From: Patescibacteria group bacterium UBA6805 | GTDB taxonomy: Bacteria > Patescibacteriota > Minisyncoccia > Minisyncoccales > Minisyncoccaceae | DNA length: 64,000 bases | Reading direction: 5' to 3' | Assembly: GCA_002452735.1 (NCBI GenBank) | Contig: DKFD01000011.1 | Span: 1-64,000, forward strand | Shown here: positions 5,070-34,252 of the stretch, in pieces | Layout: each line of letters starts with the position of its first letter | Position numbering within the stretch: position 1 is the stretch's first letter | Notes under the pieces: model-generated | What the model was told of the DNA's origin: nothing | What the model saw: only the letters and a program-made list of their open reading frames with translations | Database searches by the model: none | Made by a program: the position numbers and the translations under genes

Positions 5070-5070
5070 T

Positions 5071-5439: not shown

Positions 5440-5473
5440 GTTTTTCTATTTTACACCCAAATAAAAATATTGT

Positions 5474-14838: not shown

Positions 14839-16725
14839 ATGAAAAACAAAACAAAAAAAACCCCCTCCTCTCCCATCGGGATAGCGTCCACGGTAATCGT
14901 TTTTTCCTTATTGGCCGGACTGGTTTTGTTTTTGTATTTCATTAAAGATCTGCCCCGGCCGGAAATTTTTACCGAAAGCGAAATAAGCCAGGTCACCAAA
15001 ATTTACGACCGAAAGGGTGAAATCGTTTTATCCAGTGTTTATGGAGAAGAAAAGAGGACTTATGTCCCCCTGTCCGATATTCCCGACCACCTGAAAAAAG
15101 CCGTAATCGCCACCGAAGACGCCAATTTTTACAATCATTGGGGGGTGGACATTGCCGGTGTTTTAAGGTCGGTCAGAAACAACTTCGTTTCCAGGGGCCT
15201 TTATCAGGGAGGATCAACCATTACCCAACAATTAATCCGCTCCACCTTTCTCACTTTGGAAAAATCAATTGAAAGAAAAGTTAAAGAACTGGTCCTTTCC
15301 GTCGAGCTGGACAGGCGATATTCAAAAGACCAAATTCTCGAGTGGTATTTCAATCAAGTTCCTTTCGGCATCAATATTTACGGAGCTCAGGAAGCTTCTT
15401 TGACTTACTTCCAAAAGCCGGTTAAAGAAGTTTCCCTGGCCGAGGCCGCCCTCATAGCCGCCATTATTCAGGCTCCCAGCTATTACTCTCCCTACGGAAG
15501 CCATCTTGATGATTTGCTGGCCAGAAAAGATTATGTCCTGGAAAGAATGGAAAAAGAAGGATTTATCTCCCAAGAAGAGAAAGGGACGGCTCAAAAAGAA
15601 GAATTAAAATTCAACAAGCTTCCCAAGACCCAGGCCGTTCATTTTGTTGAATTTGTAAAAAAACAACTGGAGGACATTTACGGCTCTGACTTTCTGGAGA
15701 TAAAAGGACTTAAAATATATACAACCCTTGACTGGGAATTACAACAGTTCGCGGAAACGACCCTGAAAGAACAGGTTAACATGAATAGGATTAATTTTAA
15801 CGCCTACAATTCCGCCCTCGTAGCCATTGACCCCAAAACCGGAGAAATATTGGCCATGATTGGTTCAGCAGACCCTTGGGCAGATTCGCTGCCCAAAGGA
15901 TGCGACCCGACGACGAATTGCAAATTCGTCCCGAGCTATAACGTGGCCGTCCAGGGAGAAAGGATGCCCGGTTCTTCTTTTAAGCCTTTTGTTTACGCTG
16001 AAGCATTCAGAAAAGGGTATGACGATTTGACCATAGTGGTTGACGAAATGACAAACTTCGGCACGCCCCAAGACCCGTACATTCCCCGTAATTATGACGG
16101 CCTCTTCCGCGGACCGGTGACCCTGAGAAGCGCTTTGGCCCAATCCTTGAATATCCCTTCGGTAAAAGTTTTAAGGGACCTGGCTGGCCCGGGAGACAGC
16201 ATCGCCTTGGCCAAAAAAATGGGCATCACCACCATAGACAGAGGATTAAGCTTTTACGGACTGTCATTGGTTTTAGGCGGCGGGAACGTTAAATTGCTGG
16301 ACATGGTCTCCGCCTACGGGGTTTTTGCCAACGGCGGCTACACAATAGAGCCGTCGCCGATTTTAAGAATAGAAGACAGCCGGGGAAACATAATTTACCA
16401 GAACAAAAAAACTCCGAGAAAGGTCCTGGAAAAAAATGTTTGCGATTTGATAACGGACATTCTTTCCGACAACGCCGCCCGGGCTCCGATTTTCGGATGG
16501 AATTCCAACCTAAGATTCGACAACCCTAAAGTAGCGGCAAAAACAGGAACCACCAACGACAATATCGACGGCTGGACAATAGGGTATACTTCTGACGTCT
16601 GCGTCGGGGTCTGGAGTGGAAACAACAACAATGCGCCCATGACCGGAGCAGTGGGCGAATCATCGGCCGGACCCATTTGGAGAAAAGTAATGGAAAAAAC
16701 TATTGAAATATATTCAAACAACTAA
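14839..16725 (+). CDS. mrcA: bifunctional class A penicillin-binding protein (transglycosylase/transpeptidase)
   Basis: 628 aa; N-terminal membrane anchor, GT51 motifs 'EDANFYNHWGVD' and 'GGSTITQQL', transpeptidase 'SSFKPF' (SxxK) and 'KTGTT'. Confidence 0.85.
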   Translation: MKNKTKKTPSSPIGIASTVIVFSLLAGLVLFLYFIKDLPRPEIFTESEISQVTKIYDRKGEIVLSSVYGEEKRTYVPLSDIPDHLKKAVIATEDANFYNHWGVDIAGVLRSVRNNFVSRGLYQGGSTITQQLIRSTFLTLEKSIERKVKELVLSVELDRRYSKDQILEWYFNQVPFGINIYGAQEASLTYFQKPVKEVSLAEAALIAAIIQAPSYYSPYGSHLDDLLARKDYVLERMEKEGFISQEEKGTAQKEELKFNKLPKTQAVHFVEFVKKQLEDIYGSDFLEIKGLKIYTTLDWELQQFAETTLKEQVNMNRINFNAYNSALVAIDPKTGEILAMIGSADPWADSLPKGCDPTTNCKFVPSYNVAVQGERMPGSSFKPFVYAEAFRKGYDDLTIVVDEMTNFGTPQDPYIPRNYDGLFRGPVTLRSALAQSLNIPSVKVLRDLAGPGDSIALAKKMGITTIDRGLSFYGLSLVLGGGNVKLLDMVSAYGVFANGGYTIEPSPILRIEDSRGNIIYQNKKTPRKVLEKNVCDLITDILSDNAARAPIFGWNSNLRFDNPKVAAKTGTTNDNIDGWTIGYTSDVCVGVWSGNNNNAPMTGAVGESSAGPIWRKVMEKTIEIYSNN

Positions 16726-17861
16726 AGCTTGATGGGCATTACCACGTATAAATAACTGGCGTCCCCTATCGGCCTTATCGCCGCCGGTCCGTCGTCGCCC
16801 TGGAATTCAAATAAGATTTCCGAGCTCTTAATGGTGGTCAGCCCGTCAATCAGGAATTTCCAGTTAAAAGACACCTTAAGAGAACTTCCTTCTATTTTGG
16901 CGGGAATATTCAAATTGGCCTCTCCGACGTCCGCATCTTGGCTGAAAATCTCCACCTCTTTTTCTTTGGCCGCTATCTTCAAAACCACCTCATTGGTTCT
17001 GCCGCCGAAGATACCGGCTGTTTTTATTTGCCTCAAAAATTCTTCCTTATTCACCGTAATCTTGGTTTTGCCTTCTCTGGGAATAATTTCCTGATAAGAA
17101 GGGTACTCGCCTTCAATTTGCCTGGAAATCAAATTTATTTCCGGATGATTGACTGTTGACAGAAAGGTTTCAAATAAAACTTGGGATTCGGAAAAATAAA
17201 TTCTCAGGGTTTTTTCTTCGTCGCTGACTATATTAATCAACTCCTTGGCCGCTCTCTGGGGAAGAATGAAACTGACCCTCTCTTTGAACATGTTTTTGTA
17301 TCCCTGTTTATTGGAAAAAGTTATCACCTTCTCTGACAACCTGAAGCTGTCCGTGGCCACCAGCCTGACTAGGTCTTTTTCAAACAAGAAATACACGCCC
17401 GATATTTCCGGTTTTATTTGGGACAAGCTAACCATGTCAACCACACTCATCAACCCGTCTTTTATTTTCCTTGCATCAATCTCGATGAAAACGTCTTTGG
17501 AAAAAGAGGGAATAATGGGAAACTCATCGGCGGTAAACCCCTTAATTTGGGTTTTGTAATTTTTCCCCTCCAGCACCAGGGTATTTCCCTTTTCTTTGAT
17601 ATTAACCTTTTCGTCGGACAAAGACCCTGTTATCTGACCCAAAAGCTTGGCTGGTATCGTAATTTTACCTTCTTTCTCGGTCTTGCACATTCCCCACCAC
17701 TGAACACCCAACTCAAGGTCGGTGGCCGATATTTTCAAAAAATTGGACAGAGCCTCTATTAAAACATTGTCCAGAATCGGCAGGGTTAAATTTTTACCCG
17801 TCACTCTTTCCGTGATACTTACCCCTTTTTTTAGTTCTTTGGTTAAAATTGTAAGGTTCAT
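16722..17861 (-). CDS. dnaN: DNA polymerase III beta subunit (sliding clamp)
   Basis: 379 aa; three-domain clamp layout, position directly downstream of dnaA. Confidence 0.9.
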   Translation of the reverse strand: MNLTILTKELKKGVSITERVTGKNLTLPILDNVLIEALSNFLKISATDLELGVQWWGMCKTEKEGKITIPAKLLGQITGSLSDEKVNIKEKGNTLVLEGKNYKTQIKGFTADEFPIIPSFSKDVFIEIDARKIKDGLMSVVDMVSLSQIKPEISGVYFLFEKDLVRLVATDSFRLSEKVITFSNKQGYKNMFKERVSFILPQRAAKELINIVSDEEKTLRIYFSESQVLFETFLSTVNHPEINLISRQIEGEYPSYQEIIPREGKTKITVNKEEFLRQIKTAGIFGGRTNEVVLKIAAKEKEVEIFSQDADVGEANLNIPAKIEGSSLKVSFNWKFLIDGLTTIKSSEILFEFQGDDGPAAIRPIGDASYLYVVMPIKL

Positions 17862-18083: not shown

Positions 18084-19445
18084 TTAATTACTATATACTC
18101 TTTGTAAAATCAGTTCTATTTCTTGGTGTGTTTTTTCGTCTTCTTCCGCCGTTTTTTCAATTAATTGGCAGGCGTGGATGACCGTGGTGTGGTCTTTTCC
18201 TCCGAATTTTCTCCCTATCTCGGAATAAGAAAGCTTCAATTCTTTTTTAAGGAGAAACATGGCAACTTGCCGGGGCCGGGAAAATTCCTTTTTTCTGGAA
18301 ACGAAAAACATGTTTCCGTTGGGGATGTCGTAAAACTCGGTGACGGACTGGATTATCTTCTTGGAATTGGTTATTTTTGAAGGAGAAACAATAATGGTTT
18401 TTAACAGCTTTTTCGCATCTTCCAGGCTCGGGCTTTTATTGTTGGCCTTTTTGAAGATTATTAAGCGGTTCAGGGCGCTTTCCAGTTCCCTGATGTTTCT
18501 TTGGATGTTGTTGGCCATAAAATCAAGAATGTCTTTCGGCAAATCAACGTTTTTCTCCTCAGCTTTTTGTTTTAAAATAGCCGCTCTTGTCTCAAAATCC
18601 GGAGAAGAAATATCGGCGATCATTCCTCCTTTAAACCGCGACTTCAGCCTTTCGGTGATGGCCGGAATAGTGCTGGGGTGCCTATCCGAAGACAAGATAA
18701 TTTGTTTGTTCTTTTGATATAAAGAATTAAAGGTGTGGAAGAATTCTTCCTGGGTTTTGTCTTTGCCAGCGATGAATTGGATGTCGTCTACGATTAAAAC
18801 GTCCAACTCCCTTAAATTTTTTTTTAATTCCTCGACGTTGTGGTTCTTAATTGAATTTATGATAATGGAAATCATTTTTTCGGCCGGAAGATATTTTACT
18901 CTTTTTTCGGGAGCATCTTCCTTTATCTTGTTGCCGACGGCCTGGACCAAATGGGTTTTGCCCAGTCCCACTCCCCCGTAAACGAATAAGGGGTTGTAAT
19001 TTTTGCCCGGCTCTTCCACCACGGCCATGGCCGCGGCGAAAGCCATTTCGTTAAAGGGCCCGACAATGAAGTTTTCAAAAACATAACGGGGGTTTAGGTT
19101 GGTTTCTTTGTTGACTTCCAATTCTTTAAAGCCCAACTGTTCGGTCAAAACATCCTCCTTGTTGACAGACTTCTTGCCGCCCATCGTCTTTTTCGTTTTC
19201 TTGGGGTCAACGACGAAGGAGATATTTTTAATGTTCTCGTCGGTGGAATGGAGTATTTTTAAAATGTCTTTTCCGTATTTTTGTTCCAGCCATTCCTTGG
19301 AAAAAGAATTGGAAACAGAGACAATAACGGTATCGTTTTCCAGAGACAATATTTTGGTGTTGGCAAACCAGGTGGCGAAATTAGCCGGAGAGATGTTTAG
19401 TTGTATTTGGGCCAGCACGGACTGCCAAAGGTTTTCTAAATCCAT
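18084..19445 (-). CDS. dnaA: chromosomal replication initiator DnaA
   Basis: 453 aa; AAA+ Walker A 'GGVGLGKTHL', C-terminal DNA-binding domain 'SYSEIGRKFGGKDHTTVIHA'. Confidence 0.95.
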   Translation of the reverse strand: MDLENLWQSVLAQIQLNISPANFATWFANTKILSLENDTVIVSVSNSFSKEWLEQKYGKDILKILHSTDENIKNISFVVDPKKTKKTMGGKKSVNKEDVLTEQLGFKELEVNKETNLNPRYVFENFIVGPFNEMAFAAAMAVVEEPGKNYNPLFVYGGVGLGKTHLVQAVGNKIKEDAPEKRVKYLPAEKMISIIINSIKNHNVEELKKNLRELDVLIVDDIQFIAGKDKTQEEFFHTFNSLYQKNKQIILSSDRHPSTIPAITERLKSRFKGGMIADISSPDFETRAAILKQKAEEKNVDLPKDILDFMANNIQRNIRELESALNRLIIFKKANNKSPSLEDAKKLLKTIIVSPSKITNSKKIIQSVTEFYDIPNGNMFFVSRKKEFSRPRQVAMFLLKKELKLSYSEIGRKFGGKDHTTVIHACQLIEKTAEEDEKTHQEIELILQRVYSN

Positions 19446-20831: not shown

Positions 20832-21297
20832 AAAAGAATTATCAGAATCCATAGAGGAGATAGTCAAGGATTTTTTCCGCCGAGCCGGTTCAGAGGCGGA
20901 GATTAAAAAGATATCTCTGGAAGAATCGGACGGCCGGGAAGTTTTAATGTTGAATTTGAAAACCAAAGAAGCCAACATTTTCATCGGCAAACAAGGACTG
21001 GTTTTGTCCGACATCCAACTTCTTTTGCGAAAGATGATAAAGAAAAAAACAGACAAGGATTTTTTCTTGAATCTGGACATAGATGATTACAAAAGATATA
21101 AAGAAGATTATTTGAGAGAAATGGCTCAGGGCGCCGCTGATGAAGCAATCGGCCAAAAAGAAAAAAAAGAGCTGCCCTTGGCTTCTGCTTTTGACAGGAG
21201 GATAGTGCACCTGGAGCTTTCAAAAAGAAAAGACGTTAAAGTGGAAAGCGAGGGAGAGGGAGAGGAAAGAAAAATAATAATTACGCCTTTGGACTAA
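20815..21297 (+). CDS. Jag/KhpB-like RNA-binding protein (KH + R3H)
   Basis: 160 aa; C-terminal R3H-like 'FDRRIVHLEL'; canonical position after yidC. Confidence 0.65.
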   Translation: MKNMNEKELSESIEEIVKDFFRRAGSEAEIKKISLEESDGREVLMLNLKTKEANIFIGKQGLVLSDIQLLLRKMIKKKTDKDFFLNLDIDDYKRYKEDYLREMAQGAADEAIGQKEKKELPLASAFDRRIVHLELSKRKDVKVESEGEGEERKIIITPLD

Positions 21298-23075
21298 ACA
21301 ACTTCCTGGTTGTATTGCTTGGCTTCCCTTATTTTAATTACCTCTTCCGGAGAAGTGGTGATTATTTGGTCTTCAGTGTACGAGGCGACTACGCTGATGG
21401 CTACGTGTTTCTGGCCGGCGAAGAAAATGCCCTCGCCCACCGGGCTTTCCAGAAGAAGGTATTTTTCCTGGTCGGTTAAATTGAAAGTTTTCTGGACCAG
21501 GTCTATGGCTGCCGGGCTTTGCTTTAGAAGAAGCTGAAGAGAGGAGTTGGTGATAATGGGCTTGCCGTATTCGGAGCCGATAAAATCGGAAACGTCCTGG
21601 GTGATGGTGGTTACCCCCAGCCAGTACTTTCTTGCTCTTTTGCAGATGCCATACAAGAAAGATGCTCCGTCCGCTTCTTTCATCATCCACCATGCTTCGT
21701 CAACAACAAGAATTCTTTTCTTCATGCTGACCCTGATGGCGTTCCAGATGTAGCGCATAACAATAAACATGGCAATGGGTCTTAGCTCGTCTTCCATGTC
21801 TCTTATCCCGAAAACAGCCAGGGATTTGTTCATGGAAATATTGGATTGGTTGTTGAAGAAGGCCGAGAAAGTTCCCTTGGTGAACTTTCTCAGTCTTTCC
21901 ACCAGAGACTCTGCTCCCTGCATCGTGTCCAGAACAGATTCCAGGTCGGAAAGGGTGGGAATGTTTTCTTTCCATTTTTTGGGGTCGGAATACGGAGTAA
22001 TGTCTTTGGCGGCGTAGGTTTCCATAATCGCTCGGTCCATAATGGCGTCTTCTTCCGGCGTCAGTCCCCCGAGCATTATTCTGGTTAAGCCGACCAAGTT
22101 GATAATGTTGCTTCTCAATACGTCTTCCGGGGTTTCGTCTTCCCTCGGTTCCGGCAAGTCAAAAGGATTGATGTGGTTATCGGAGCTCAGGGATATTTTA
22201 AAAAAAGAACCATCCACGGCATCGGCCAGGGGCTTGTACTCGTTTTCCGGGTCGATGATTATACATTCGGCTCCCAACATCAAAGACCTTAATATTTCCA
22301 GCTTTACGGCATAGGATTTGCCCGAGCCGGATTTGGCGAAGATGACCATATTGGCGTTTTCCAAGCTGAAGCGGTCGAATAAAATCAGGGAGCTGTTGTG
22401 CTTGTTGACACCGAAGAGAATGCCTTCGTTGGAGCTTAAATCAAAAGAGATGAAAGGAAACAAGCTGGACAGGGGGCCGGTATTCAGTGTGCTATGGACT
22501 TGTAACAAATCCATTCCGTAGGGGAAGCAGGACAATAAGCCCTCTTTTTGCTGGAGCAGGGCTGGTTTTATATATATCAGTCTTGATTCCAGCATTGACC
22601 TTAAGGACGTTTCCACGGTCTCCAAATCTTTTTTATTGTCAGCGTAAATGGTGATATACAGTCCGAATTTGAACATTTTTTCCTGGGCGGTCTGGAGCTT
22701 GTCTCTTAAATCTTCGAGGTCCTGATAAGCGGTTTCCAAGGACGGGTCCCTGATCAGCCCCTTTTCCTGCCTTTCGATTATTTCCGACTGCACCTCGGTT
22801 ACGCTTTTTCTTAATTGCCTTAAAATGGTCCCGGTTTCAATGGGGTGGAAGAAGAAAGACAAATCAAAGGGTACGTCCATATTAATGATAGGAGACAGCC
22901 ATCCCATTGTCAGATAACGGGGATAAGAAAAAACAAAATAGGTTTTGGAGAATTTTTCTTCAATCCTTACGTAGTTCTGATCAACCTCAATGGCAGGCGA
23001 AGCAATAATGTCTTTGGCGCCGGTGACTTCTTTTTCAAAAAGTTTGCCGGGCTTTGGTTTGTTGAATAATGCCAT
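21294..23075 (-). CDS. VirB4/TrbE-family type IV secretion ATPase, C-terminal ATPase portion
   Basis: ORF 21294-23153; Walker A 'FAKSGSGKSYAVK', Walker B 'ILVVDEAWWMM'; probable start at internal Met 'MALFNKPKPGKL' (23075). Confidence 0.75.
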   Translation of the reverse strand: MALFNKPKPGKLFEKEVTGAKDIIASPAIEVDQNYVRIEEKFSKTYFVFSYPRYLTMGWLSPIINMDVPFDLSFFFHPIETGTILRQLRKSVTEVQSEIIERQEKGLIRDPSLETAYQDLEDLRDKLQTAQEKMFKFGLYITIYADNKKDLETVETSLRSMLESRLIYIKPALLQQKEGLLSCFPYGMDLLQVHSTLNTGPLSSLFPFISFDLSSNEGILFGVNKHNSSLILFDRFSLENANMVIFAKSGSGKSYAVKLEILRSLMLGAECIIIDPENEYKPLADAVDGSFFKISLSSDNHINPFDLPEPREDETPEDVLRSNIINLVGLTRIMLGGLTPEEDAIMDRAIMETYAAKDITPYSDPKKWKENIPTLSDLESVLDTMQGAESLVERLRKFTKGTFSAFFNNQSNISMNKSLAVFGIRDMEDELRPIAMFIVMRYIWNAIRVSMKKRILVVDEAWWMMKEADGASFLYGICKRARKYWLGVTTITQDVSDFIGSEYGKPIITNSSLQLLLKQSPAAIDLVQKTFNLTDQEKYLLLESPVGEGIFFAGQKHVAISVVASYTEDQIITTSPEEVIKIREAKQYNQEVV

Positions 23076-23080
23076 ATTGT

Positions 23081-23722
23081 TTATGTTATAATTTCCGGCG
23101 GCAGTTCGGGATAATATCCCAATTCGGCCTGCTTCGGATGGTGCAAGCTCCACAAAAGCTCAATTAATTCTTCCGTCCCCAGGGGCACTGATTTCAAGCC
23201 GCATCTTCTCAGTCCCAAAGAAATATATTCCATTCTTTGCCAGAGCTGGTATTTTCCGGTCTGGAAGCCCTGCTCGGTCAGAGTGGAGCGGGTGGTTTGT
23301 TTCTTTCCCTCTCCCCCACTGGTCAGGCTCGGGAGCTCAACCAAAGGATAGTAAGGGACGACGATATAGAAATTTTTATTCATGATTGACCCGCCGGCCA
23401 CCAACTCTTCAACGAACCGTCTGTAATCAGAGGTTTGGATTTTCAAGAGTTCGTTTTTTTGCTCGTCTTCCAGTTTTTTGATTTTTTCCACATAGCCGGT
23501 GATGTTCACTTTCCTTGAGCTCACGATTATCTGGCAGGAGAAGTCTAAAGAATTCAAGAAGTTTTGAAAATTGAAAATGATGGCGCCCTGCTCTTCTTCC
23601 GATTTCAAGGCGAAATTAATTGAGGAAATAAGAAGAATCCCTTTTAATGATTTGTCTTTCATGATCATCACTCCTTCGCGGATTTGCTCAACCGGTATAA
23701 ATTGTTGGGAAGATATGGCCAT
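23081..23722 (-). CDS. VirB4-family N-terminal domain as a separate ORF (split gene, frameshift or genuinely bipartite)
   Basis: 213 aa; 'GILLISSINFALKSEEEQ' region resembles the N-terminus of Gram-positive-type VirB4 proteins; ends 5 nt before the ATPase ORF in a different frame; the combined length of about 806 aa is normal for VirB4. Confidence 0.55.
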   Translation of the reverse strand: MAISSQQFIPVEQIREGVMIMKDKSLKGILLISSINFALKSEEEQGAIIFNFQNFLNSLDFSCQIIVSSRKVNITGYVEKIKKLEDEQKNELLKIQTSDYRRFVEELVAGGSIMNKNFYIVVPYYPLVELPSLTSGGEGKKQTTRSTLTEQGFQTGKYQLWQRMEYISLGLRRCGLKSVPLGTEELIELLWSLHHPKQAELGYYPELPPEIIT

Positions 23723-24141
23723 TATTTTTCAAAAAATATTTTTTTACTTAAGGATTCGATTTTTCCACTCGGCCTGAGACTAAGCTTTGTTTTCTCTTCT
23801 TTTTTCGGCTCAACGGATTTTTTGGACGTTCTGGTGGGGAGAAAAACCGGCGATGCCTTTCTGTCCCACCTATATATCTTACTGCCTACGGTGAAGTTGA
23901 AGAAATTCTTGGAGACAACGGCGATTCCCAGTCCCTCGACTTTCAAAAAGGCCAGAGCCAGAGAAGAGCCGAAAAGCGCGCCGCAAACCAAGATGTATAA
24001 AAAAAAGTTTGATTTCCCCAGGGAAAAATACAGAAAAAAGCACAGTCCCAGAGCCATGCCGATATACACGCTCTGTTTTAAAGTAAAGGGACCCAGAATT
24101 TTAGGATCGTGCTCTATGAATTGGGGAACTTGAAACTGCAT
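23722..24141 (-). CDS. PrgI-like (VirB3-like) small two-TM T4SS protein
   Basis: 139 aa; 'MQFQVPQFIEHDPKILGPFTLKQSVYIGMALGLCFFLYF' matches the PrgI-family start pattern (VPQ...f.gLTlrQ) followed by two TM helices; located directly upstream of VirB4. Confidence 0.5.
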   Translation of the reverse strand: MQFQVPQFIEHDPKILGPFTLKQSVYIGMALGLCFFLYFSLGKSNFFLYILVCGALFGSSLALAFLKVEGLGIAVVSKNFFNFTVGSKIYRWDRKASPVFLPTRTSKKSVEPKKEEKTKLSLRPSGKIESLSKKIFFEK

Positions 24142-24143
24142 AA

Positions 24144-24581
24144 TTAAAAGGTTTCTCTATAAGGATCTTTGGGAGAGTCGCCCGTCTCCTTCTTTTCCTT
24201 CTTTATTATATCATCTTTTTTGATTTTTGCATCTTCTTTCGGGATATTTCCTTCTTTTTCTTCATGAAGCTTGTCCAAAGAAACTCTTAAATACTTGAAA
24301 ATGGCCAGGTTTAGCTCTCTGGCTATCTTATTGGCAGTCTGTTCGTCAACGTTCAGTTCCAGTTCCAGAGTAATGGGGAATTCTTTCAGGGGCAAAAGAC
24401 CCATCAAAACTCTGCCCGTGTATTTGGCGGCGATGGATATCTTTTCTTCATCCAGTCCCATATCAGCGCATATTTTTTCAACCAGCTTGTTGTTTTTTTC
24501 GGAGAACACGGCTTCTTTCAAGTCTTCGGGCAGTTTTTCATATGTTTTCCAAAAGAATTCTTTGGTATATTCTTGTTCCAT
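24144..24581 (-). CDS. hypothetical protein
   Basis: ORF 24144-24659, likely start 'MEQEYTKEFF'; no recognisable motifs. Confidence 0.35.
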   Translation of the reverse strand: MEQEYTKEFFWKTYEKLPEDLKEAVFSEKNNKLVEKICADMGLDEEKISIAAKYTGRVLMGLLPLKEFPITLELELNVDEQTANKIARELNLAIFKYLRVSLDKLHEEKEGNIPKEDAKIKKDDIIKKEKKETGDSPKDPYRETF

Positions 24582-24708
24582 AAAATTACTATATTTTACC
24601 ACAAACAGCGGGGAGGTTTCAAGGCGTGGGGAGCGAGATGTTGACAAAAACCAGCACATTGTTTATTATTATATCAGTCCTTTGACAGGATGATACGGAG
24701 ACTTAACC

Positions 24709-25237: not shown

Positions 25238-26614
25238 ATGAAGGATTTTGAGAAAACAGGAAAAACCGGAAAGAATGTTGAGCAAAAAGAAAACGAATTC
25301 GCCGTTTTTTCTAAGGGGATTATCGTTATTCTTGCCCCTATTTTAATTGCGTTTATGGCCTACGCGCTTGGACAGTGGAGTCCGTGGGCTTGGTTCTCTG
25401 TTATTTTTTCGTATATTTACATCCCATCTTATATCCTTGCTTTAGTGCTTGTTCCCCTTGTTCTTTATTTCTATTGGGCCAAACACAACGTCATAGGATA
25501 TTTCATTGAAGAAGGATACTGCATAATTTTCGCATGGAGCGGAGAAAATTTCGCCGGGGCAGACCTGCGATACGGCAAGGCGCGCTTTAATGAAAATTGG
25601 GACGTCGAGACGCCCGAAACTTCCGAAGAAAAAAAACCAATGTGGCAAAGAGGGAAAAAGATACGCATCGGAGGAATGGGTTTTTATCTCTGGCCTTTTA
25701 AAAGAATATACGAATATAATATGACTTGGGCCAAAAAGACGGAAAAGGGGGAAAGAGTTTCCAAAACCGAAAAACTTTCCCGCGTTCTTCTGAAGCCGTA
25801 CGTTTATTCTCTCGAGTATCAAAACATGGAAGATGCGGACAGAATGCCCATCAATATTGAGATAGCGGCTGAAATGCAAATAATAAACCCCATTAAAGCC
25901 CTATTCGGAGTGGAAAGATGGTATAGAGCCATCTTAAACATGACAGAGGGCGAGGTAAGGAAGTATATCGGGGAAAACCTTTATATAAAACTGATTAACC
26001 GTAAAAGTCAGGAAGAAGTGGGCGAAAAAATTAAGGAACAAATGAAAAACGTCTTGCAAGATTTTAATGCAGAGTATGGTGTCAATGTAAAGAGAATAAA
26101 AGTAATGCAAGTGGTTCCTTCAAGAAAAGAAGATGTTGAGGCAACTCTTAAAGCAATGCAGGCTGAAAGAGAAAGGGAGCGAGTAATAATCACAGCCCAG
26201 GCCGAAGCGGTTAAAATAGGGCAAGAACTTACGGGTGCCGTCATGCAGGCGCTGAGCTTGATGACCGGCATAAAAACAACCGAGCTCCAAGCGGAATTCA
26301 TCGCTGCTCCCGAGGCGTTTGAAAAAAAATACGGGGTAGCGTACAGGGAGGCCTATGACTTTGCGAAAAGAAGGATGGGCTTCGTCCAAAAAGGACGCAT
26401 TGAAATCATAACAGCCGATGGCTGCGACAAAGAAGGAAGTGCTTGTCCCAACAGCGGCGGCATAAATACGGACAAGTTGATAGAGGTTATAGCGGCGGTT
26501 GAGATGACGAAACAGGCGCTTTCCCAAAGGCCCGGGAGTCCTGCCCGGGAAGGAAGCGAAAAGAATCCTTTGTCTCTGGAAGAGAAAAAAAATAAGCTCG
26601 GACTAAAATATTAG
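25238..26614 (+). CDS. SPFH/band-7 (stomatin/prohibitin/HflK-like) membrane protein
   Basis: 458 aa; N-terminal TM helices, SPFH-like core 'VNVKRIKVMQVVPSRKEDVEATLKAMQAERERERVIITAQAEA'. Confidence 0.55.
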   Translation: MKDFEKTGKTGKNVEQKENEFAVFSKGIIVILAPILIAFMAYALGQWSPWAWFSVIFSYIYIPSYILALVLVPLVLYFYWAKHNVIGYFIEEGYCIIFAWSGENFAGADLRYGKARFNENWDVETPETSEEKKPMWQRGKKIRIGGMGFYLWPFKRIYEYNMTWAKKTEKGERVSKTEKLSRVLLKPYVYSLEYQNMEDADRMPINIEIAAEMQIINPIKALFGVERWYRAILNMTEGEVRKYIGENLYIKLINRKSQEEVGEKIKEQMKNVLQDFNAEYGVNVKRIKVMQVVPSRKEDVEATLKAMQAERERERVIITAQAEAVKIGQELTGAVMQALSLMTGIKTTELQAEFIAAPEAFEKKYGVAYREAYDFAKRRMGFVQKGRIEIITADGCDKEGSACPNSGGINTDKLIEVIAAVEMTKQALSQRPGSPAREGSEKNPLSLEEKKNKLGLKY

Positions 26615-27125: not shown

Positions 27126-29159
27126 TTAGGATATGGAGTTGGTAATAATGTCCAGTTTTTTGGTTATTTCTTTTTTCATGTTTTTTGCCTCTGTCGTCGT
27201 TAAATTATTAAGTTCTTGAATTTTAGCATTGGCCTGAGCCGTCCATATCTTATTGCTTTTTACGGCTTCTTTTTGTTCTTCGCTTAGGTTCTTGAAAAGA
27301 TTATAGATTTGCCTTTGGTTGAGGCCCGTTACATGCTTTTCAAAATCAAAACCGTCAAAAGTCGAGGGGTTTTGTAGCGCGTCTCTTTGCTGTTGCGTCC
27401 CGCGTTCATCAAAATATTTTCGGTCTTTTTCTGTTAGATTTGCCGCAACGAAAATATTCGTCAGAGAATCTGTCCTTATTTTTTCCTGTTTTTCTTTGGC
27501 ACTCATTTTTGACATAATGTCTGCCGTGGTTTGTTTTCCGTCCGTCAGCTTTTCAGCCTCTTGGGGAACAAACTTGGCAAACTCTTTTTTGCTAAACCCG
27601 TAGTTTCCGGCCGTCTTAATGTTTTTCGTTAAATAATCTATTTCTCCGTCATTAAGGTCTTTTTTCTCCATTAGTATTTGCAATGCCATGTGCTTTTTTA
27701 TGTTATCTTCTCTTGTCATGGGGGTAATGCCGCTAATTCTGCGCAATCCGTCGGTTGTTAAATTTTCCATCGGCTCTTTAAACTGTTTGAATTCTTTTTC
27801 TTCCATTCCTGCCGCAGTTCCCGGTTTTTCAAGGCCGATATCTTCTTTTCTCCTTGTTACCCATTGTTTTGCTCCTTCTGTTCGCTCCAGCGGAGATTTT
27901 ATCATCCCAGTCAAGCCGGCCGTGCTTGCAACCCTGCTTTTCTCGTCCACTTTGGCGGTCAGGGCTTCCTTAACACCGGTTTTTGTTCCGCCATACAGTC
28001 CCCCGCCCAAAACATAGGCGGCTCTTTTGGCCAGTCCATCGTCTTTAGTAAGAGCAGCCTGGGTTTTTGCTCCGGCATAGGCTCCGGTGGCGAATCCTGC
28101 TCCGGCAGCAGTCAGTCTTCCGAAGGCCTGCCTTCCATATCCGGTTGCCATTTCCGCTATTTGTCCGCCCGAAGAAACTGTTATGAAAAACCCGACAACA
28201 AGGAAGGCAAGGGGGACAATAAGACCAAGTAAACCACCAAGTCCAACAAGTCTTCCTCCTGGCTCTGAAACAAGCGGACTAATGGCCATCGTGGCCATTG
28301 TTTTATTTGACAGGTAGAGAGAGAAGCTGGCCGGAATACCGATAACCGTCCATTGAAGGAAATTGTTCCACCATTCATCCCAATAAGTGATGCTGGGAAA
28401 TATTTTTTGGAGATATTTTCCTTCGGGAAAAACCTTGCTGGCAAAGGCGATGGGAGAAACTATGACCAAAATCCACAATACAATGTGCCTGGCCAAGAAT
28501 ATGAAAGCGTAAAGGAAATATATGACAGTGGCGAATATGGCGAAAAGAAGGTAAGCGATAGGAAAAATGGGATCGTCAAAAGTAAAAGATTTGGACCGTA
28601 GTCCTTCGAGAATTATCTTTGCCATGTCGTAATTAATTCCACTGGTTAAAAATAAACCCATTAATTTGTTGGCAAAATCAATCATCACGCCGGCGATTAC
28701 CGGGGTGAAATTAATCAAAAGAGCTATGCCGACGAAATTAATCAATGCTTTTTTGGCTTTTGTTTCCTGAAAGCCGAGAATGATACTGATGGCAACGGCC
28801 ACCAAGCCGAAGACAAGAGCAACGTTGGCCAGGTTTCTTACCGTTTCCCATCCCATTTTGACGACGGGATTGTCTTGAATGGTGGTTCCCATGAAATCAG
28901 GACTGATAACCCAGGCCAACAAATCGTTGCCAACCTGCAATATTCCTTGGGCTATGCCAGAAAGCGTAAGGGTAAAGACAGCAAGAATCGCAGACCCTAT
29001 ATTAACAGAGTCTTCGTTTCCGCCAACAAATTGCGCTATCTTACTAATCATGGTGGCCCCGGCTATAATCTCAAACAGTTGAGCCCGGGCCAGAATAGGA
29101 GTAAGGATGAATAATAGAGAAAGGAAAATTATAAAAAATGTTTTGATTGAATGTTTCAT
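27126..29159 (-). CDS. VirB6/TrbL-like polytopic membrane protein with long K/E-rich C-terminal tail
   Basis: 677 aa; signal peptide, at least 6 predicted TM helices in the first 330 aa, Gly/Ala-rich linker, hydrophilic coiled-coil-like C-terminus; genomic association with VirB4. Confidence 0.5.
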   Translation of the reverse strand: MKHSIKTFFIIFLSLLFILTPILARAQLFEIIAGATMISKIAQFVGGNEDSVNIGSAILAVFTLTLSGIAQGILQVGNDLLAWVISPDFMGTTIQDNPVVKMGWETVRNLANVALVFGLVAVAISIILGFQETKAKKALINFVGIALLINFTPVIAGVMIDFANKLMGLFLTSGINYDMAKIILEGLRSKSFTFDDPIFPIAYLLFAIFATVIYFLYAFIFLARHIVLWILVIVSPIAFASKVFPEGKYLQKIFPSITYWDEWWNNFLQWTVIGIPASFSLYLSNKTMATMAISPLVSEPGGRLVGLGGLLGLIVPLAFLVVGFFITVSSGGQIAEMATGYGRQAFGRLTAAGAGFATGAYAGAKTQAALTKDDGLAKRAAYVLGGGLYGGTKTGVKEALTAKVDEKSRVASTAGLTGMIKSPLERTEGAKQWVTRRKEDIGLEKPGTAAGMEEKEFKQFKEPMENLTTDGLRRISGITPMTREDNIKKHMALQILMEKKDLNDGEIDYLTKNIKTAGNYGFSKKEFAKFVPQEAEKLTDGKQTTADIMSKMSAKEKQEKIRTDSLTNIFVAANLTEKDRKYFDERGTQQQRDALQNPSTFDGFDFEKHVTGLNQRQIYNLFKNLSEEQKEAVKSNKIWTAQANAKIQELNNLTTTEAKNMKKEITKKLDIITNSIS

Positions 29160-29530: not shown

Positions 29531-32500
29531 ATGGACAAAAAGAAAATTATTTTTATTTTAATCCTTCTCGTTCTTCCTTTTTTTGTTATGGCTCAAGCCG
29601 GCCTGGAGAACGATTATCCGGCTATTGGCGGGACCCAACCCACGGACAGTTCTTCCCCGGCCGAATTCTTAAAATACATTTTCAACCTGGGAATTCTTTT
29701 CGGCGTCATTGCCGCTGTTTTCGTTTTGATTTCCCAGGGCGCGACCATGCTCATGGCCAAAGGAGAAATGGCCCTGGTCATTCTGGCTCAAGAAAAAATC
29801 AAAAGGGTTTTTGTCGGCCTCCTGATTCTTTTAGGCTCTTACATCATTTTAACAGCCATTAATCCCGATTTGAAGGTTATAAAATTCAGTCCCTTGGAAG
29901 TTTTTGAAAACATAATAAACAAGCCCGGAACCGAAGAAGAAACCTACCCTCTGTCGGAATTCGAGGAAATCCCCCTGGGCTCCATTCTGGAAAGCATTCT
30001 AGCCGCCAATTCTTCGGAAAGAATCTACAACGACAGAACCGAAGAGCTTTGCTACGCTTACGATGAAAACGGAGATACGATTGATAGAAATGACGACAAG
30101 AAGATAGACGAGAACGACCTGCTAAAAGGAATGGATATGTATTATTGCCTGTCGGAACTGAACAAAGCCATAATCAAGAAGATAAGAGATTTGAACGGAG
30201 GCAACTCTTTGTGTAACAGTCCCTCCAAAGGCGGGCCGATTGAAGAAATGAAAACTTTGATTGCCAGCGGCTGCAGCTGTCAGGCTTGTGATGTCTGGAA
30301 ACCAAATTATTATTGTCCGGGCTCCGAATGTTATCAGTGTATGACCTATGCCTGCGGGGAATGCAGTACTTGCTGTAAGGACCACTGCTCTTGTTGCGGC
30401 CGGGCTTATTACGCCCCGGATTTGGGTTGCCAACAGGTTAACGATAAATCAAGAGACCCTTGCGCGGCGGTCAGGGACGGCATAGATTGCGCCAGAAACG
30501 AAATCAAGCTGCGAGTTGACGGAAACGGATACGGCGTTCCAGGAGCGGCCGAGGATAAATGCGCTTTTACCAGATATTTCAACGAGAATGAATATAAGTT
30601 TTTAACAATCAGCGAGGGAAGGGAAAGGTTGGAATCGTTCAGAAACTATTTTCAGAACCATTTGACGGACTTGATAAAAGCGGAATCAATGATGAAATCT
30701 CCTTATGGGGAGAGAATATCGTTGGCCGAGTTTGAGGCCATTCGGTCCAAAGACCAATACAAAAAGACGGTGGCCAAAGAATTCCAAAACACCAACAGCG
30801 ATTATTCTTATAATCCGGTAAAATACTGTCGCGATTTCAATTGTACGGAATACAAAAACGGAGACGAAAAAAATCTTTGCGTGTCCGGAGGGAGAGTTGA
30901 TTTGACCCAGGAACTGATGGAAAAAGAAAAACTGATAGACCCCTTGTATGATAAGGAGCCCGAGATTTTTGACAAGAGAGTCTGCCAAGTAAATCAAATA
31001 CAAAACGGAAACGATACAGAGAGTTATTATTACGACGGCGACGGAGCGACCTTCTATTTCCAGGCGGGGTACAAGACAAAAAAAACAAGCAATCAAGAAA
31101 AATGCTCAATTGATTCCGCCATTGAGAAAGAAACCATCAAGAGCTTGATTCCTATTGGAGAAACGGTTGATGCTACGGAAAAATTCGCTGAAGACGTTTT
31201 GGTTTTAATAAATCAAATTATGTCGGAAACCCGGGAGACTATTGAGAAAGCAATTCAGTTAAGTGCCCTGCCAGAGAAGTGTGATTGTTCTCAGGGCTGC
31301 AGCAACAGATCTGACTGCAGATGTTCTACCAGCGAAGAAGGATGCACCAGCTGTTCTTGTGGTTCGTGTCTGGCCTGCGATGCCAGATCCCAAACGCTGT
31401 GCACTTGCTGTAAAGACTGCGAAGAGGTGGAGGTCGTTGATGAGAATATTCCCAGTCCTTGGGACGATATGACCAGTTTTGGCTATTGCCCGTCTTGCCC
31501 GTCCCTTTATTCGACCGGAGACGTGAACGAGTACTGGACCTATTGCCCTTGTAGCGGAATCCTGCTTTTTCCCAATATATCGCTTATTAACGACCCTAAA
31601 ACCCAGTTTTGTTATTTGGGAGAAGAGCTTGGTTCTTATTGTTCTTTAAGTTTTCAAGAAGAAAAATGCCAAACAGCATTTAGAAGATTGCCTTTAATGT
31701 GCATGCTTTCAAGAGTAAGCGCTCCCAGATTTGTAAATTATACCATAGAAAGCTGTCAAGCAGTCAGCCAGAACCCAACCGTGGCTCCCATTCTTTGCGG
31801 AAGCGGTTTGAATACTTATTACACTCAAAAAAACATTTTAACGTTAAAACCCAAGTCAGAAATAATCGTTGTTTGCGAAGGACAGCAGCCGGTTAATCAA
31901 GAAGCAATAAATAATTTAAACGTCCACTGCAGCACGAGTTGCAAGGGTGAACCGGGATGTCAAGGACGTCTTGATTGGATAAGCGCCGATGAATTTATCT
32001 TAACAAATTATTTCTGCAAAGGCCCCATGGCTCCGAAAGACCCCAAGGGCCTAATAGGGAGAGACAGTACGCCTTATAATAATTCCATGTCCATTTTTTT
32101 ACCCGGCGGCCATGAAATAGTCAGCATCGAGGCCATTCCTTTGACCACCGGCGCGAGGTCTGTCAAGTATTATCATCTCGGGGGTTGCTCCACGGAGTAT
32201 ACCGACGATGGACCGGTGGAGCATTGCACAGAAGCGGGCTACAACACCTATCATTTTTGGGACGGCGGTTATGCTTTGAAAATCAAGGTTGTCAATACGA
32301 TAAGAATAAAACGGGGAGAGATTGACAATCAGGCTTATTACGTCTGTCCCTATAATGACATAAAAGACAGGCAGTGCCGGATATTCAAATACAGCGACGA
32401 TGTAGAGCCGAATTATCCGGAAAACATTGATACGGATTACGACTGCCGGGATGAAAATTCTTCCGGCGCGGGATATCTTCAGAAGATAGAGCTTTTGAAC

Positions 32501-32902
32501 GACCGCCTGAACAATTTAATCCAAGGCAAAAACTTAAGGGAGGGCGATGTCAATCGCTGGACGATTCTGGAAAAGCTCTCTTTGACAAGAAAGAGGGCGG
32601 AATCCTGCGTCCGGGGCTATGGCTTTCCCCACAAAGAGGACTTGACCGAGCAAAGGATATTTTCCTGCCAGGAAGGGATTGATGCCACAATTTTGAATTC
32701 TTTGGTCGTTTTGCCCGACTTCCCCTACCCCCAAACCGGAAATTACTGGAATTGCTATCCTTTGAACAGCAGTTTTCTGACCAATGACCAGAAAGAATCT
32801 TGCTATATCAACAAAGATGCCGAGGGAACCGAAGCAGACCCGAAATGCCAAAGATTAATCAAGGGCATGATGGATAATTATTATTGCTGCCAGGGAGAAT
32901 AA
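29531..32902 (+). CDS. secreted VirB2/TrbC-like pilin domain fused to a very large Cys-rich ectodomain
   Basis: 1123 aa; signal peptide '...FFVMAQA', then two hydrophobic helices separated by a short 'AKGE' loop and ending 'ILTAINP' (T4SS-pilin-like); the remainder is dense with CxxC/CC clusters, e.g. 'CSCQACDVWKPNYYCPGSECYQCMTYACGECSTCCKDHCSCCG'. Confidence 0.6.
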   Translation: MDKKKIIFILILLVLPFFVMAQAGLENDYPAIGGTQPTDSSSPAEFLKYIFNLGILFGVIAAVFVLISQGATMLMAKGEMALVILAQEKIKRVFVGLLILLGSYIILTAINPDLKVIKFSPLEVFENIINKPGTEEETYPLSEFEEIPLGSILESILAANSSERIYNDRTEELCYAYDENGDTIDRNDDKKIDENDLLKGMDMYYCLSELNKAIIKKIRDLNGGNSLCNSPSKGGPIEEMKTLIASGCSCQACDVWKPNYYCPGSECYQCMTYACGECSTCCKDHCSCCGRAYYAPDLGCQQVNDKSRDPCAAVRDGIDCARNEIKLRVDGNGYGVPGAAEDKCAFTRYFNENEYKFLTISEGRERLESFRNYFQNHLTDLIKAESMMKSPYGERISLAEFEAIRSKDQYKKTVAKEFQNTNSDYSYNPVKYCRDFNCTEYKNGDEKNLCVSGGRVDLTQELMEKEKLIDPLYDKEPEIFDKRVCQVNQIQNGNDTESYYYDGDGATFYFQAGYKTKKTSNQEKCSIDSAIEKETIKSLIPIGETVDATEKFAEDVLVLINQIMSETRETIEKAIQLSALPEKCDCSQGCSNRSDCRCSTSEEGCTSCSCGSCLACDARSQTLCTCCKDCEEVEVVDENIPSPWDDMTSFGYCPSCPSLYSTGDVNEYWTYCPCSGILLFPNISLINDPKTQFCYLGEELGSYCSLSFQEEKCQTAFRRLPLMCMLSRVSAPRFVNYTIESCQAVSQNPTVAPILCGSGLNTYYTQKNILTLKPKSEIIVVCEGQQPVNQEAINNLNVHCSTSCKGEPGCQGRLDWISADEFILTNYFCKGPMAPKDPKGLIGRDSTPYNNSMSIFLPGGHEIVSIEAIPLTTGARSVKYYHLGGCSTEYTDDGPVEHCTEAGYNTYHFWDGGYALKIKVVNTIRIKRGEIDNQAYYVCPYNDIKDRQCRIFKYSDDVEPNYPENIDTDYDCRDENSSGAGYLQKIELLNDRLNNLIQGKNLREGDVNRWTILEKLSLTRKRAESCVRGYGFPHKEDLTEQRIFSCQEGIDATILNSLVVLPDFPYPQTGNYWNCYPLNSSFLTNDQKESCYINKDAEGTEADPKCQRLIKGMMDNYYCCQGE

Positions 32903-32921: not shown

Positions 32922-34247
32922 ATGAAGAAAAAAATATTATTTCTGTTCCTTCTGCTCTCTCTTGTTTTGGTTTCCAATGTTTATGCCTTGGAAGCGCAGT
33001 ATCCTGAAATTCTGGGTAAAACCATAACCGATGAAACCACGCCGGCTGGTTACGTGGTATATTTCTTCTATCTGGCCATGTCCTTGGGAAGCGTTCTGGT
33101 TTTCATAATCTTGGTCATGGCCGGAATTGATTTTATCACCGCAGGAGGAGAGCCGGCGAAAATAAGCGAAGGGAGAAAAAAGATAATCAGCGCCATTGTC
33201 GGCTTGATAGTTCTTTTCAGCTCTTTCCTGATTCTTAACAGTATCAATCCCGCCTTGCTGAAGATAGAGCTGGAAAAATTGGAATGTCCGGGAGGAATTT
33301 CAATCGTGAAGCAGAAAGCTGACGGGAAGAAAGTTGATGACTGCATAACCGGCAGCGTAAGCAACATCGAAGGAGACGTTATTGAGACAAAGGGATGGGT
33401 TTTTTCGGGTTGTCTCGTAAAAGAGGTCTATCTTTGCACTCAGCCGGGCTTCAAAGGAACCTGCACTAAAGTTTCTGACCCCAAAAGTCAGAATTTTACC
33501 TGCCAACCCAATTACCAGTTCACAAACGGTACCAGCTTAAGCGGAGTCAAATCAGTAAAATTCGTCTGGCGCTCACCCGGAGTATATTTGTACGACAACA
33601 TCAACTTTGAACCAAACGACCTCAGCAAAAGCCCGAAGCATCTCGGCAGCAACATTAAAAATATGAACGACGTCGGTTTTGACAATATGGCTCAATCATA
33701 CCAGTTAATTTTCCCGGAAACGGAAACAGCCGAAGAGATTCCGATATATTACGGTGCGGTTTTTTTTGACAGCTTCAATTATTCGGGCAAATGCAGTCTG
33801 GAAATAATGAACCAAAAGGACTTGGGAGTTCCCACTTCCATCGGAAGGAACACCTTGTCTTCGGCCATTGTTTTCACCCAAAAAGAGACCGATACCCTCA
33901 AGGATTTGGGCGACATTGTTTTGTACAATAACATAGATTGCGGACAAAGTACCAGCGAGGAAGTAAAGAAATGCTCCCTGAATATTTACAATTACATAAC
34001 AGTCGGAAAGATTAAAGACGATTGTCCCGAATTCGAGGACGGAGACTACGTGCTTTCTTTCAGCATCAACGGACCCGGAGGCATGATTTTAAAAGGAAGC
34101 CAGAACGCGCTTTGCGAATATTTTGATTCCAAGAGCATGGTTTCCGGCAGTTGTTATCCGAGCTTAAAAACCAAATCAACAATTTACGTCCAGGGGCCTG
34201 GAGGAACCAAGCCTGAGTCTTATATAATCTTCCCGGTGGACAATTAA
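32922..34247 (+). CDS. secreted VirB2/TrbC-like pilin domain fused to beta/gamma-crystallin-like repeats
   Basis: 441 aa; signal peptide, pilin-like helices '...VLVFIILVMAGIDFITAGGEPAKISEGRKKIISAIVGLIVLFSSFLILNSINP'; C-terminal repeats with Greek-key-like 'GVYLYDNINFEPND...SYQLIFPE' and 'AVFFDSFNYSGKCSLEI...LSSAIVF'. Confidence 0.6.
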   Translation: MKKKILFLFLLLSLVLVSNVYALEAQYPEILGKTITDETTPAGYVVYFFYLAMSLGSVLVFIILVMAGIDFITAGGEPAKISEGRKKIISAIVGLIVLFSSFLILNSINPALLKIELEKLECPGGISIVKQKADGKKVDDCITGSVSNIEGDVIETKGWVFSGCLVKEVYLCTQPGFKGTCTKVSDPKSQNFTCQPNYQFTNGTSLSGVKSVKFVWRSPGVYLYDNINFEPNDLSKSPKHLGSNIKNMNDVGFDNMAQSYQLIFPETETAEEIPIYYGAVFFDSFNYSGKCSLEIMNQKDLGVPTSIGRNTLSSAIVFTQKETDTLKDLGDIVLYNNIDCGQSTSEEVKKCSLNIYNYITVGKIKDDCPEFEDGDYVLSFSINGPGGMILKGSQNALCEYFDSKSMVSGSCYPSLKTKSTIYVQGPGGTKPESYIIFPVDN

Positions 34248-34252
34248 TAAAT

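Follow-up and report, generated by a model that had tools for sequence, protein, structure and literature searches.

Is the virB4 gene of this genome broken, or is its product really made as two polypeptides? In the window, i.e. the whole 64,000-nucleotide stretch of contig DKFD01000011.1 that was analysed, a VirB4 homologue is encoded by two successive ORFs on the minus strand. The upstream ORF (23081-23722) runs from ATG 23722 to a TAA stop codon at 23083-23081 and encodes 213 residues. The junction (23076-23083) consists of this stop codon and a 5-nt spacer, ACAAT (23080-23076). The second ORF starts immediately after, at ATG 23075, and ends at 21294, giving a protein of 593 residues. The ORFs lie in different frames (offset 2). 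Together they encode 806 residues, an ordinary length for VirB4. Upstream of ATG 23075, 26 further codons of the downstream frame are free of stops. Mechanical ORF calling therefore extends it to GTG 23153 (619 aa), with a 73-nt overlap with the upstream ORF. The original prediction described this two-ORF VirB4 and its coordinates accurately, and we verified both the minus-strand anatomy and the relatedness of each half to VirB4. Three explanations had been offered: a sequencing or assembly indel, a recent inactivating frameshift, or a real two-polypeptide VirB4. The same split is found in relatives, and only the third explanation stands. The locus very probably carries a genuine and anciently fixed two-gene VirB4, within a chromosomal, origin-proximal type IV secretion system (T4SS) locus of a Paceibacteria-type (Patescibacteria/CPR) bacterium.

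The product of the downstream ORF (21294-23075) comprises the C-terminal ATPase domain of VirB4, preceded by the distal part of its N-terminal domain. It matches the NCBIfam model of CD1110-family VirB4 (NF045971) with 361.9 bits (E 6.7e-108), above the curated cut-off of 325. Residues 16-559 align with positions 183-733 of the 752-position model, and the first ca 180 positions are not covered by this ORF. Pfam matches are P-loop_TraG, AAA_10 and DUF87. Residues 215-573 match the structure of the VirB4 C-terminal domain (4AG5; E 1.6e-39). The Walker A motif AKSGSGKS (residues 247-254, positions 22314-22337) aligns with the P-loop of 4AG5. The Walker B motif ILVVDEAW (residues 455-462, positions 21690-21713) was located from the motif itself and from the alignment with 4AG5. 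Both motifs are intact. The protein is not a single-chain VirB4, its N-proximal ca 200 residues being located in the separate upstream gene.

The 213-aa protein resembles TrsD. Its NCBIfam matches are confined to the N-terminal parts of full-length VirB4 models, namely positions 2-118 of 752 in the CD1110 family model, 104-233 of 894 in Mbov_0397, 7-124 of 792 in TIGR00929 and 14-177 of 789 in PRK13853. The TrsD/TraD model NF041427 gives 22.5 bits (E 8.5e-5), for a curated cut-off of 200. The protein thus appears to be a remote homologue and positional equivalent of TrsD/TraD, without being a member by the NCBI threshold. Precomputed Pfam annotation assigns PF26593 (TraC-like) to the identical protein and to all of its 120 best homologues; a local Pfam scan of the 213 residues returned no family. 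A sequence search of the PDB returned only noise (E at least 0.36). The AlphaFold model of the protein has a pLDDT of 77. Compared with the PDB, its top matches are 14 chains of TrwK, the VirB4 of R388 (probability 0.94-1.00), after which only noise is observed. The fold match is specific but moderate, with TM values of 0.44-0.50 and E ~5e-3. The 213-aa protein is a stand-alone counterpart of the N-proximal ca 200 residues of VirB4.

On full-length VirB4 profiles, the two products are colinear and do not overlap. The upstream product covers positions ~2-118 (up to 177) and the ATPase ~183-733. A natural fusion provides a direct view of this complementarity. P0229, a fused relative of 797 residues, can be aligned over its whole length with the two halves. 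The 213-aa protein matches residues 4-213 of P0229 (38% identity), and residues 16-587 of the ATPase align with residues 226-796 (56% identity). The comparison with an intact VirB4 proposed in the original prediction thus reveals no missing junction residues. The synteny of P0229 is the same as here (PrgI ... jag-yidC-rnpA-dnaA), and its upstream neighbour is a clear PrgI match. Three observations, namely the complementary coverage of VirB4 profiles, a natural fusion with shared synteny and a fold resembling that of TrwK, lead us to argue that TrsD-like proteins are a detached N-terminal subdomain of VirB4.

The split is widely conserved. A homologue search gave 7683 proteins with E<=0.001 among 8000 candidates scored. 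Homologues of both halves number in the thousands and, as shown below, both evolve under strong purifying selection, which excludes a chance pair of ORFs. The best 120 homologue clusters of the 213-aa protein are all short stand-alone proteins (190-271 aa, 58-100% identity). In an exhaustive search with the same ORF, 149 of the 150 best representatives of 50%-identity clusters have 125-443 residues and one has 797 residues. Single-chain forms are therefore very rare among close relatives (1/150). The related loci of 74 species-level genomes were compared, the closest being MAGs named Candidatus Paceibacterota, Minisyncoccales, Parcubacteria and Ca. Microsyncoccus archaeolyticus. Both genes are present in 72 of these loci. 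In all 72, a TrsD homologue is paired with virB4 and a stop codon separates the two genes. The position of the upstream stop itself is fixed. In 119 of the 120 closest homologue clusters a tail motif G[YFW][YFW]Px(1-3)PP is found and the protein ends exactly 4 residues later. Here, the tail up to the stop codon is GYYPELPPEIIT (23084-23119). This motif is rare in more distant homologues (3/150) and is missing from the fused P0229.

How do these data bear on an artificial break of a single 806-aa gene by a sequencing or assembly indel? The 5-nt distance between ORFs in different frames and the 26 open codons upstream of ATG 23075 would fit such an error. However, 22 contigs from NCBI, JGI and Logan assemblies carry the same pair of 213 and 593 residues with identical proteins, and the identical genes are present in GCA_002421465.1. 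Moreover, the peptide encoded upstream of ATG 23075 in the ATPase frame (ELAPSEAGRIGILSRTAAGNYNINN) has no counterpart in P0229, whereas the tail in the upstream frame is conserved up to its stop. In two related loci (L005 and L012), a stop codon closes the ATPase frame directly before its ATG. Together with the split in 72 of 72 loci, these observations leave the indel a negligible probability; conservation in related genomes had been named beforehand as the finding that would speak against a sequencing error, and it is overwhelming. A recent frameshift that would have turned virB4 into a decaying pseudogene is just as improbable. Nothing but the two-ORF appearance suggests it. Against it, besides the intact Walker motifs, the split is common to Paceibacteria, Doudnabacteria, CPR2 and Saccharimonadales loci, down to 34% identity. 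In addition, comparison with locus L009 gives dN/dS values of 0.040 for the upstream gene and 0.028 for the ATPase gene at dS ~0.73, indicating strong purifying selection on both halves. Finally, a fused VirB4 could be made by programmed ribosomal frameshifting or stop read-through, since only a few nucleotides separate the stop from the start and, in this genome, the ATPase frame extends without a stop beyond its ATG on the upstream side. Met1 of the ATPase could be aligned unambiguously in 35 loci. In these, however, the spacer varies from 1 to 81 nt and frame offsets 0, 1 and 2 occur in 7, 19 and 9 cases, respectively. Hence, no single recoding event is conserved. Several relatives also have a stop in the ATPase frame a few nucleotides upstream of the ATG, an unrelated 138-aa gene lies between the two genes in locus L066, and reading of the junction sequence revealed no slippery heptamer. 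We consider recoding extremely unlikely. The split is therefore real, conserved and under selection, with two halves that are colinear with and complementary to full-length VirB4 and with intact ATPase motifs.

Less clear-cut is an alternative that accepts two genes and differs on the role of the first product. According to it, the TrsD-like protein originated from the VirB4 N-terminus and has since become an independent accessory or regulatory subunit, for instance an assembly factor or an adaptor present at another stoichiometry, rather than simply completing the domain. The TrsD-like half does evolve faster than the ATPase: its identity to P0229 is lower, and identities are lower for the upstream than for the downstream product in nearly all 72 loci. 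The lineage-specific conserved tail and the long low-complexity C-terminal extensions of many homologues point in the same direction. On the other hand, gene order and tight spacing are kept in most lineages, the natural fusion P0229 occurs in the same synteny, and the coverage of VirB4 profiles is complementary. We regard an independent subunit as rather unlikely.

In the preferred reading, that of a VirB4 completed by two gene products, the TrsD-like polypeptide corresponds to the first ca 200 residues of canonical VirB4 and the 593-aa product to the remainder of the N-terminal domain followed by the ATPase domain. The break falls in a variable, probably disordered linker. The gene preceding the TrsD-like gene encodes a small PrgI/VirB3-like membrane protein of 139 residues (23722-24141, minus strand; Pfam PrgI, E 9.8e-5, 23.3 bits, below the cut-off of 27), and its stop codon shares bases with the start codon of the TrsD-like gene (TAATG). 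As the PrgI/VirB3-like, TrsD-like and VirB4 genes are co-directional, with stops and starts that overlap in the first case and nearly abut in the second (5 nt), a common transcript and tandem translation are most likely. A Shine-Dalgarno sequence is missing before ATG 23075, but this says nothing on translational coupling because 33 of the 42 long ORFs in the window have no SD-like 4-mer. The TrsD-like polypeptide may bind the ATPase non-covalently, thereby reconstituting the VirB4 N-terminal domain, and may couple the ATPase to membrane components. This physical association, its stoichiometry and the membrane-docking role of the TrsD-like protein are inferred. As to annotation, virB4 should not be flagged here as frameshifted or as a pseudogene, and the ORFs should not be merged. 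For the 213-aa “hypothetical protein”, the appropriate annotation is TrsD-like N-terminal module of VirB4.

A name exists for the upstream gene (TrsD/TraD-like; Pfam PF26593 TraC-like), and the arrangement has been published for the ultra-small Patescibacteria, in which it is the normal one. In Patescibacteria T4SS loci near dnaA, a “TrsD” gene adjoins virB4, and TrsD is a remote homologue of the VirB4 N-terminus (Quinonero-Coronel et al. 2025, PMC12102498). The same study describes TrsD homologues adjoining virB4 as widespread in Patescibacteria and, within the phylum, ranks TrsD first in abundance among T4SS components. It also reports that one TrsD homologue is essential in Ca. Southlakia epibionticum ML1 (PMC12102498). 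A cultured Patescibacterium is reported to require this T4SS for its epibiotic lifestyle, and TrsD is listed in the literature with “no function assigned”. The chromosomal T4SS of Patescibacteria is related to MPF-FATA (PMC12102498; Wang et al. 2023, PMC10633639). VirB4 is not named in the main text of the latter paper. TrsD is not mentioned in the main text of Guglielmini et al. 2014 (PMC4027160), so that the statement on TrsD and the VirB4 N-terminus rests on the citation of that work by the 2025 paper. The present locus shows no essential difference from the Patescibacteria systems and is a further example of them. A TrsD homologue next to virB4 is accompanied by PrgI/VirB3-like and VirB6-like genes and by genes for VirB2-like pilins. 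The locus is close to the origin, with dnaA-rpmH-rnpA-yidC-jag as neighbours. In the window, dnaN is at 16722-17861 and dnaA at 18084-19445, with rpmH, rnpA, yidC and jag between dnaA and virB4. An explicit complementary gene fission, the fused exception, the variable spacer and the conserved C-terminal tail are not described in PMC12102498.

A similar layout is observed in the staphylococcal conjugative plasmids pGO1 and pSK41, where a TrsD/TraD of ca 220 residues is followed a few nucleotides later by the VirB4-type ATPase TrsE/TraE. In pSK41, the order is as here: a small upstream gene, trsD (227 aa), 14 nt and a 672-aa ATPase. Residue 33 of the present ATPase aligns with residue 47 of that of pSK41, showing that the break point is equivalent. 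The two ATPases share 22% identity (E 1e-32). The relationship between the 213-aa protein and pSK41 TrsD is very remote (165 aligned columns, hhalign E 0.0039, probability 8.6%). Unlike the present chromosomal locus, the plasmid pSK41 is conjugative and encodes both a relaxase and a coupling protein; here, a scan of 16 ORFs of at least 330 residues, out of 27 listed, revealed neither. A lack of both proteins is among the features of the Patescibacteria clusters (PMC12102498). Compared with single-chain VirB4 (TrwK of R388, A. tumefaciens VirB4 and the CD1110 family of Gram-positive ICEs), the two products jointly account for the entire profile, in colinear order, with a C-terminal domain homologous to 4AG5 and a TrwK-like predicted fold for the first half, but the chain is broken into two polypeptides ca 200 residues from the N-terminus. 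It is tempting, though doubtful at this stage, to imagine one ancient fission common to the pGO1/pSK41-type Gram-positive systems and the whole Patescibacteria T4SS clade, kept because a detachable N-terminal module is useful. GYYPxLPPE would then be a docking element in this Paceibacteria lineage, re-fusions such as P0229 would be secondary, and the module could tune VirB4 stoichiometry or its assembly on VirB3/PrgI.

Several other genes surround the split virB4. The co-directional block starts with a gene for a 171-aa protein of no assigned family (24144-24659, minus strand). Its position is conserved, the slot being occupied by a gene of 171 or 145 codons in loci L001-L004 and of 156 codons in L005 and L006. 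Further upstream, a 677-aa polytopic membrane protein (27126-29159, minus strand), with hydrophobic segments visible in its translation, is a candidate VirB6/TrbL-like component. A Pfam scan of this protein gave no match; the evidence for VirB6 comes solely from a weak precomputed PF19590 (TrbL_3) match of its L002 orthologue. On the plus strand, two tandem genes (32922-35467) carry an N-terminal T4SS_pilin domain (VirB2-like; PF18895). The first encodes 441 residues (32922-34247; E 5.4e-7, 30.0 bits for a cut-off of 26.6) and the second 404 residues (34253-35467; E 1.4e-4, 22.3 bits, below the cut-off).

The 213-aa TrsD-like ORF (N half) runs on the minus strand from ATG 23722 to TAA 23083-23081. 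It is followed, after a 5-nt spacer (ACAAT), by the 593-aa ATPase ORF (C half), also on the minus strand and counted from the Met codon at 23075 (ATG 23075 to 21294). Read mechanically, the latter ORF extends upstream of this ATG as far as GTG 23153. The two frames differ and the lengths total 806 aa; coordinates, gap, frames and total length are all as described in the original prediction.

Profile and structure matches identify the 593-aa product as a VirB4-type ATPase. It scores 361.9 bits against the NCBIfam CD1110-family VirB4 model (cut-off 325) and matches the Pfam families P-loop_TraG, AAA_10 and DUF87. The VirB4 C-terminal domain of known structure, 4AG5, is matched by residues 215-573 (E 1.6e-39), and Walker motifs A (AKSGSGKS) and B (ILVVDEAW) are both undamaged. 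Of the 752 positions of the VirB4 model, the product spans only ~183-733. The 213-aa product matches the N-terminal part of the CD1110 VirB4 model (positions 2-118) and other full-length VirB4 models (Mbov_0397, 104-233; TIGR00929, 7-124; PRK13853, 14-177). Because the model coverage of each product fills the gap left by the other, the two are colinear and complementary, not duplicates. The match of the 213-aa product to the stand-alone TrsD/TraD family is weak (E 8.5e-5), and its NCBIfam TrsD score, 22.5 bits against a cut-off of 200, is below the family threshold. By these profile matches, the N half is a remote TrsD homologue and positional equivalent, not a family member by the NCBIfam cut-off. 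For the 213-aa protein, AlphaFold2 gave a model from an alignment of 41 sequences (pLDDT 77, pTM 0.66). The top 14 PDB hits to this model are without exception TrwK/VirB4 chains from the R388 T4SS (probability 0.94-1.00, TM 0.44-0.50), after which the list falls steeply to noise.

The original prediction left three alternatives, namely a sequencing or assembly indel, an inactivating frameshift or a genuinely split ATPase, and set conservation of the split in related genomes as the test against sequencing error. This conservation was found. On 22 contigs (NCBI GCA_002421465.1, JGI and Logan assemblies), a protein identical to the 213-aa one is encoded 5 nt from the same 593-aa neighbour. We fetched 74 loci from different species of Paceibacterota, Minisyncoccales, Nealsonbacteria, Doudnabacteria, CPR2 and Saccharimonadales; a stop separates the two genes in all 72 loci that have both. 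Spacer and frame counts were limited to the 35 loci in which the ATPase Met1 could be aligned unambiguously. The spacers measure 1, 2, 3, 4, 5, 6, 8, 9, 13, 20-23, 74 or 81 nt, and the frame offset is 0 in 7 loci, 1 in 19 and 2 in 9. One indel or recoding event cannot account for this spread of spacers and frames. An exhaustive HMMER search with the N ORF covered 1.84 billion cluster representatives. Among the best 150 (E <= 1e-31, identity falling to ~35%), 149 are 125-443 aa long and one, P0229, is VirB4-sized (797 aa). The best 120 homologue clusters (58-100% identity) all have lengths of 190-271 aa, and in 119/120 of these close homologues the stop lies exactly four residues past a conserved GYYPx(1-3)PP. 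In a comparison with the related locus L009 (dS ~0.73), the N gene has a dN/dS of 0.040 and the C gene one of 0.028.

Contigs, homologue lengths, loci, stop position and selection together lead us to reject four alternatives to a true split. Assembly error is incompatible with a split that recurs on all these contigs and loci with variable spacers and frames and a fixed stop. Conservation of the split, the undamaged Walker motifs and purifying dN/dS in both genes argue against a recent frameshift and a pseudogene. Programmed frameshifting is rejected in view of the 1-81 nt spacers, the three frame offsets and the intervening gene of a Doudnabacteria MAG (L066, JAHFJK010000032.1). There, an unrelated 138-aa gene (4198-4614) is located between the TrsD-like (3459-4142) and ATPase (4611-6470) genes, which are thus not adjacent in this lineage. 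The split is real and ancient, and selection acts on it; of the three original alternatives, the genuinely split ATPase stands, and the indel and the inactivating frameshift do not.

The fused relative P0229 shows the same synteny as here: PrgI, then VirB4, then jag-yidC-rnpA-rpmH-dnaA. Residues 4-213 of P0229 align to the N half at 38% identity, and its residues 226-796 to C-half residues 16-587 at 56%. In this comparison with an intact VirB4 no residues are missing at the junction; the split version has more junction residues than the fused one. In many homologues of the N half the C-terminus is extended by low-complexity sequence, which brings total lengths up to 443 aa (e.g. P0159, 432 aa; P0181, 443 aa). 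The 213-aa protein itself ends with the tail GYYPELPPEIIT (window 23084-23119, minus strand), near-invariant in the close clade. The GYYPxLPPE tail is found in 119/120 close clusters versus 3/150 distant ones, and GYYPELPPEIIT is missing from P0229. From this distribution, the tail may be a peptide for docking or recognition that is specific to the lineage. Given such plasticity around the break, with extensions and a clade-limited tail, we place the break in a variable linker that joins two sub-domains.

The co-directional block encodes, in order, a 171-aa unknown protein, a PrgI/VirB3-like protein (139 aa), the TrsD-like protein and VirB4. The PrgI-like stop overlaps the TrsD-like start (TAATG). 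The ATPase start context, ataaacaatATG, resembles those of neighbouring genes, and starts in the window lie in A/T-rich contexts such as aataaacaATG. An SD-like 4-mer at -20..-4 is absent in 33/42 ORFs of at least 200 aa over the whole window; Shine-Dalgarno sequences are hardly used by this genome. In R388 structures, the VirB4 N-terminal domain is the part touching VirB3 and the membrane. On the reading we favour, the PrgI/VirB3-like, TrsD-like and VirB4 genes would be carried on one transcript and translated in tandem, and the TrsD-like polypeptide would bind the ATPase non-covalently, completing the VirB4 N-terminal domain.

The other flank of the pair carries jag, yidC, rnpA, rpmH, dnaA and dnaN. 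A 677-aa polytopic protein is encoded nearby; its orthologue shows a weak TrbL_3 match. On the plus strand, a 1123-aa protein without Pfam match (29531-32902) precedes two tandem proteins of 441 and 404 aa (32922-35467) with an N-terminal T4SS_pilin (VirB2-like) domain, unusually long for pilins. An SPFH/Band 7 protein (458 aa, 25238-26614, plus strand) is encoded on the opposite strand amid the T4SS genes; the near-identical contigs L001-L004 share its gene, and the related L005-L007 lack it. A scan of 16 of the 27 listed ORFs of at least 330 aa revealed neither a relaxase nor a coupling protein. Farther along, a 1468-aa protein (54191-58597, plus strand) combines a Fib_succ_major domain with numerous Kelch repeats and probably represents a large surface protein.

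The prototype of the arrangement is pGO1/pSK41: in pSK41, 14 nt lie between trsD (227 aa) and the gene for a 672-aa DUF87 ATPase downstream of it. Residue 33 of the present ATPase aligns with residue 47 of the pSK41 one (E 1e-32), so the break points are equivalent. pSK41 TrsD and the N half align weakly, over 165 columns (hhalign E 0.0039). The two-gene VirB4 arrangement is already described in the literature. A survey of Patescibacteria T4SS genes (Quinonero-Coronel et al. 2025, PMC12102498) counted 2,272 TrsD homologues, 1,664 of them virB4-associated, listed that of Ca. Southlakia epibionticum ML1 as essential and located Paceibacteria T4SS near dnaA, rnpA and rpmH; the window is a further example of exactly the same arrangement. 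Our additions are small: the explicit complementary VirB4-profile coverage, a naturally fused gene in matching synteny, spacers that vary across the three frames, the predicted TrwK-like fold of the N half and the clade-specific C-terminal tail.

The same split, with an N half 77% identical, occurs in Ca. Microsyncoccus archaeolyticus PMX.50 (L015, BTXY01000004.1). As an archaeon-associated member of the group, this organism could be of use as an experimental handle. In locus L071 (4147-7473), the ATPase gene product reaches 1108 aa, of which ~530 aa form an N-terminal extension of low complexity, rich in Pro, Glu and Ala. In a Patescibacteria MAG (L046:4148-7633, JAHITK010000003.1), the VirB4 ATPase has a ~640-aa in-frame insertion exactly in Walker A (...GGGK|SVLSFEP ... 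GGMFVHN|SYAVKLEVL). The insertion contains the LAGLIDADG-like motifs LKIIGFITSEGTV and LSAYFEGDGEV and has the look of an intein, homing endonuclease included, sited in the P-loop of VirB4.
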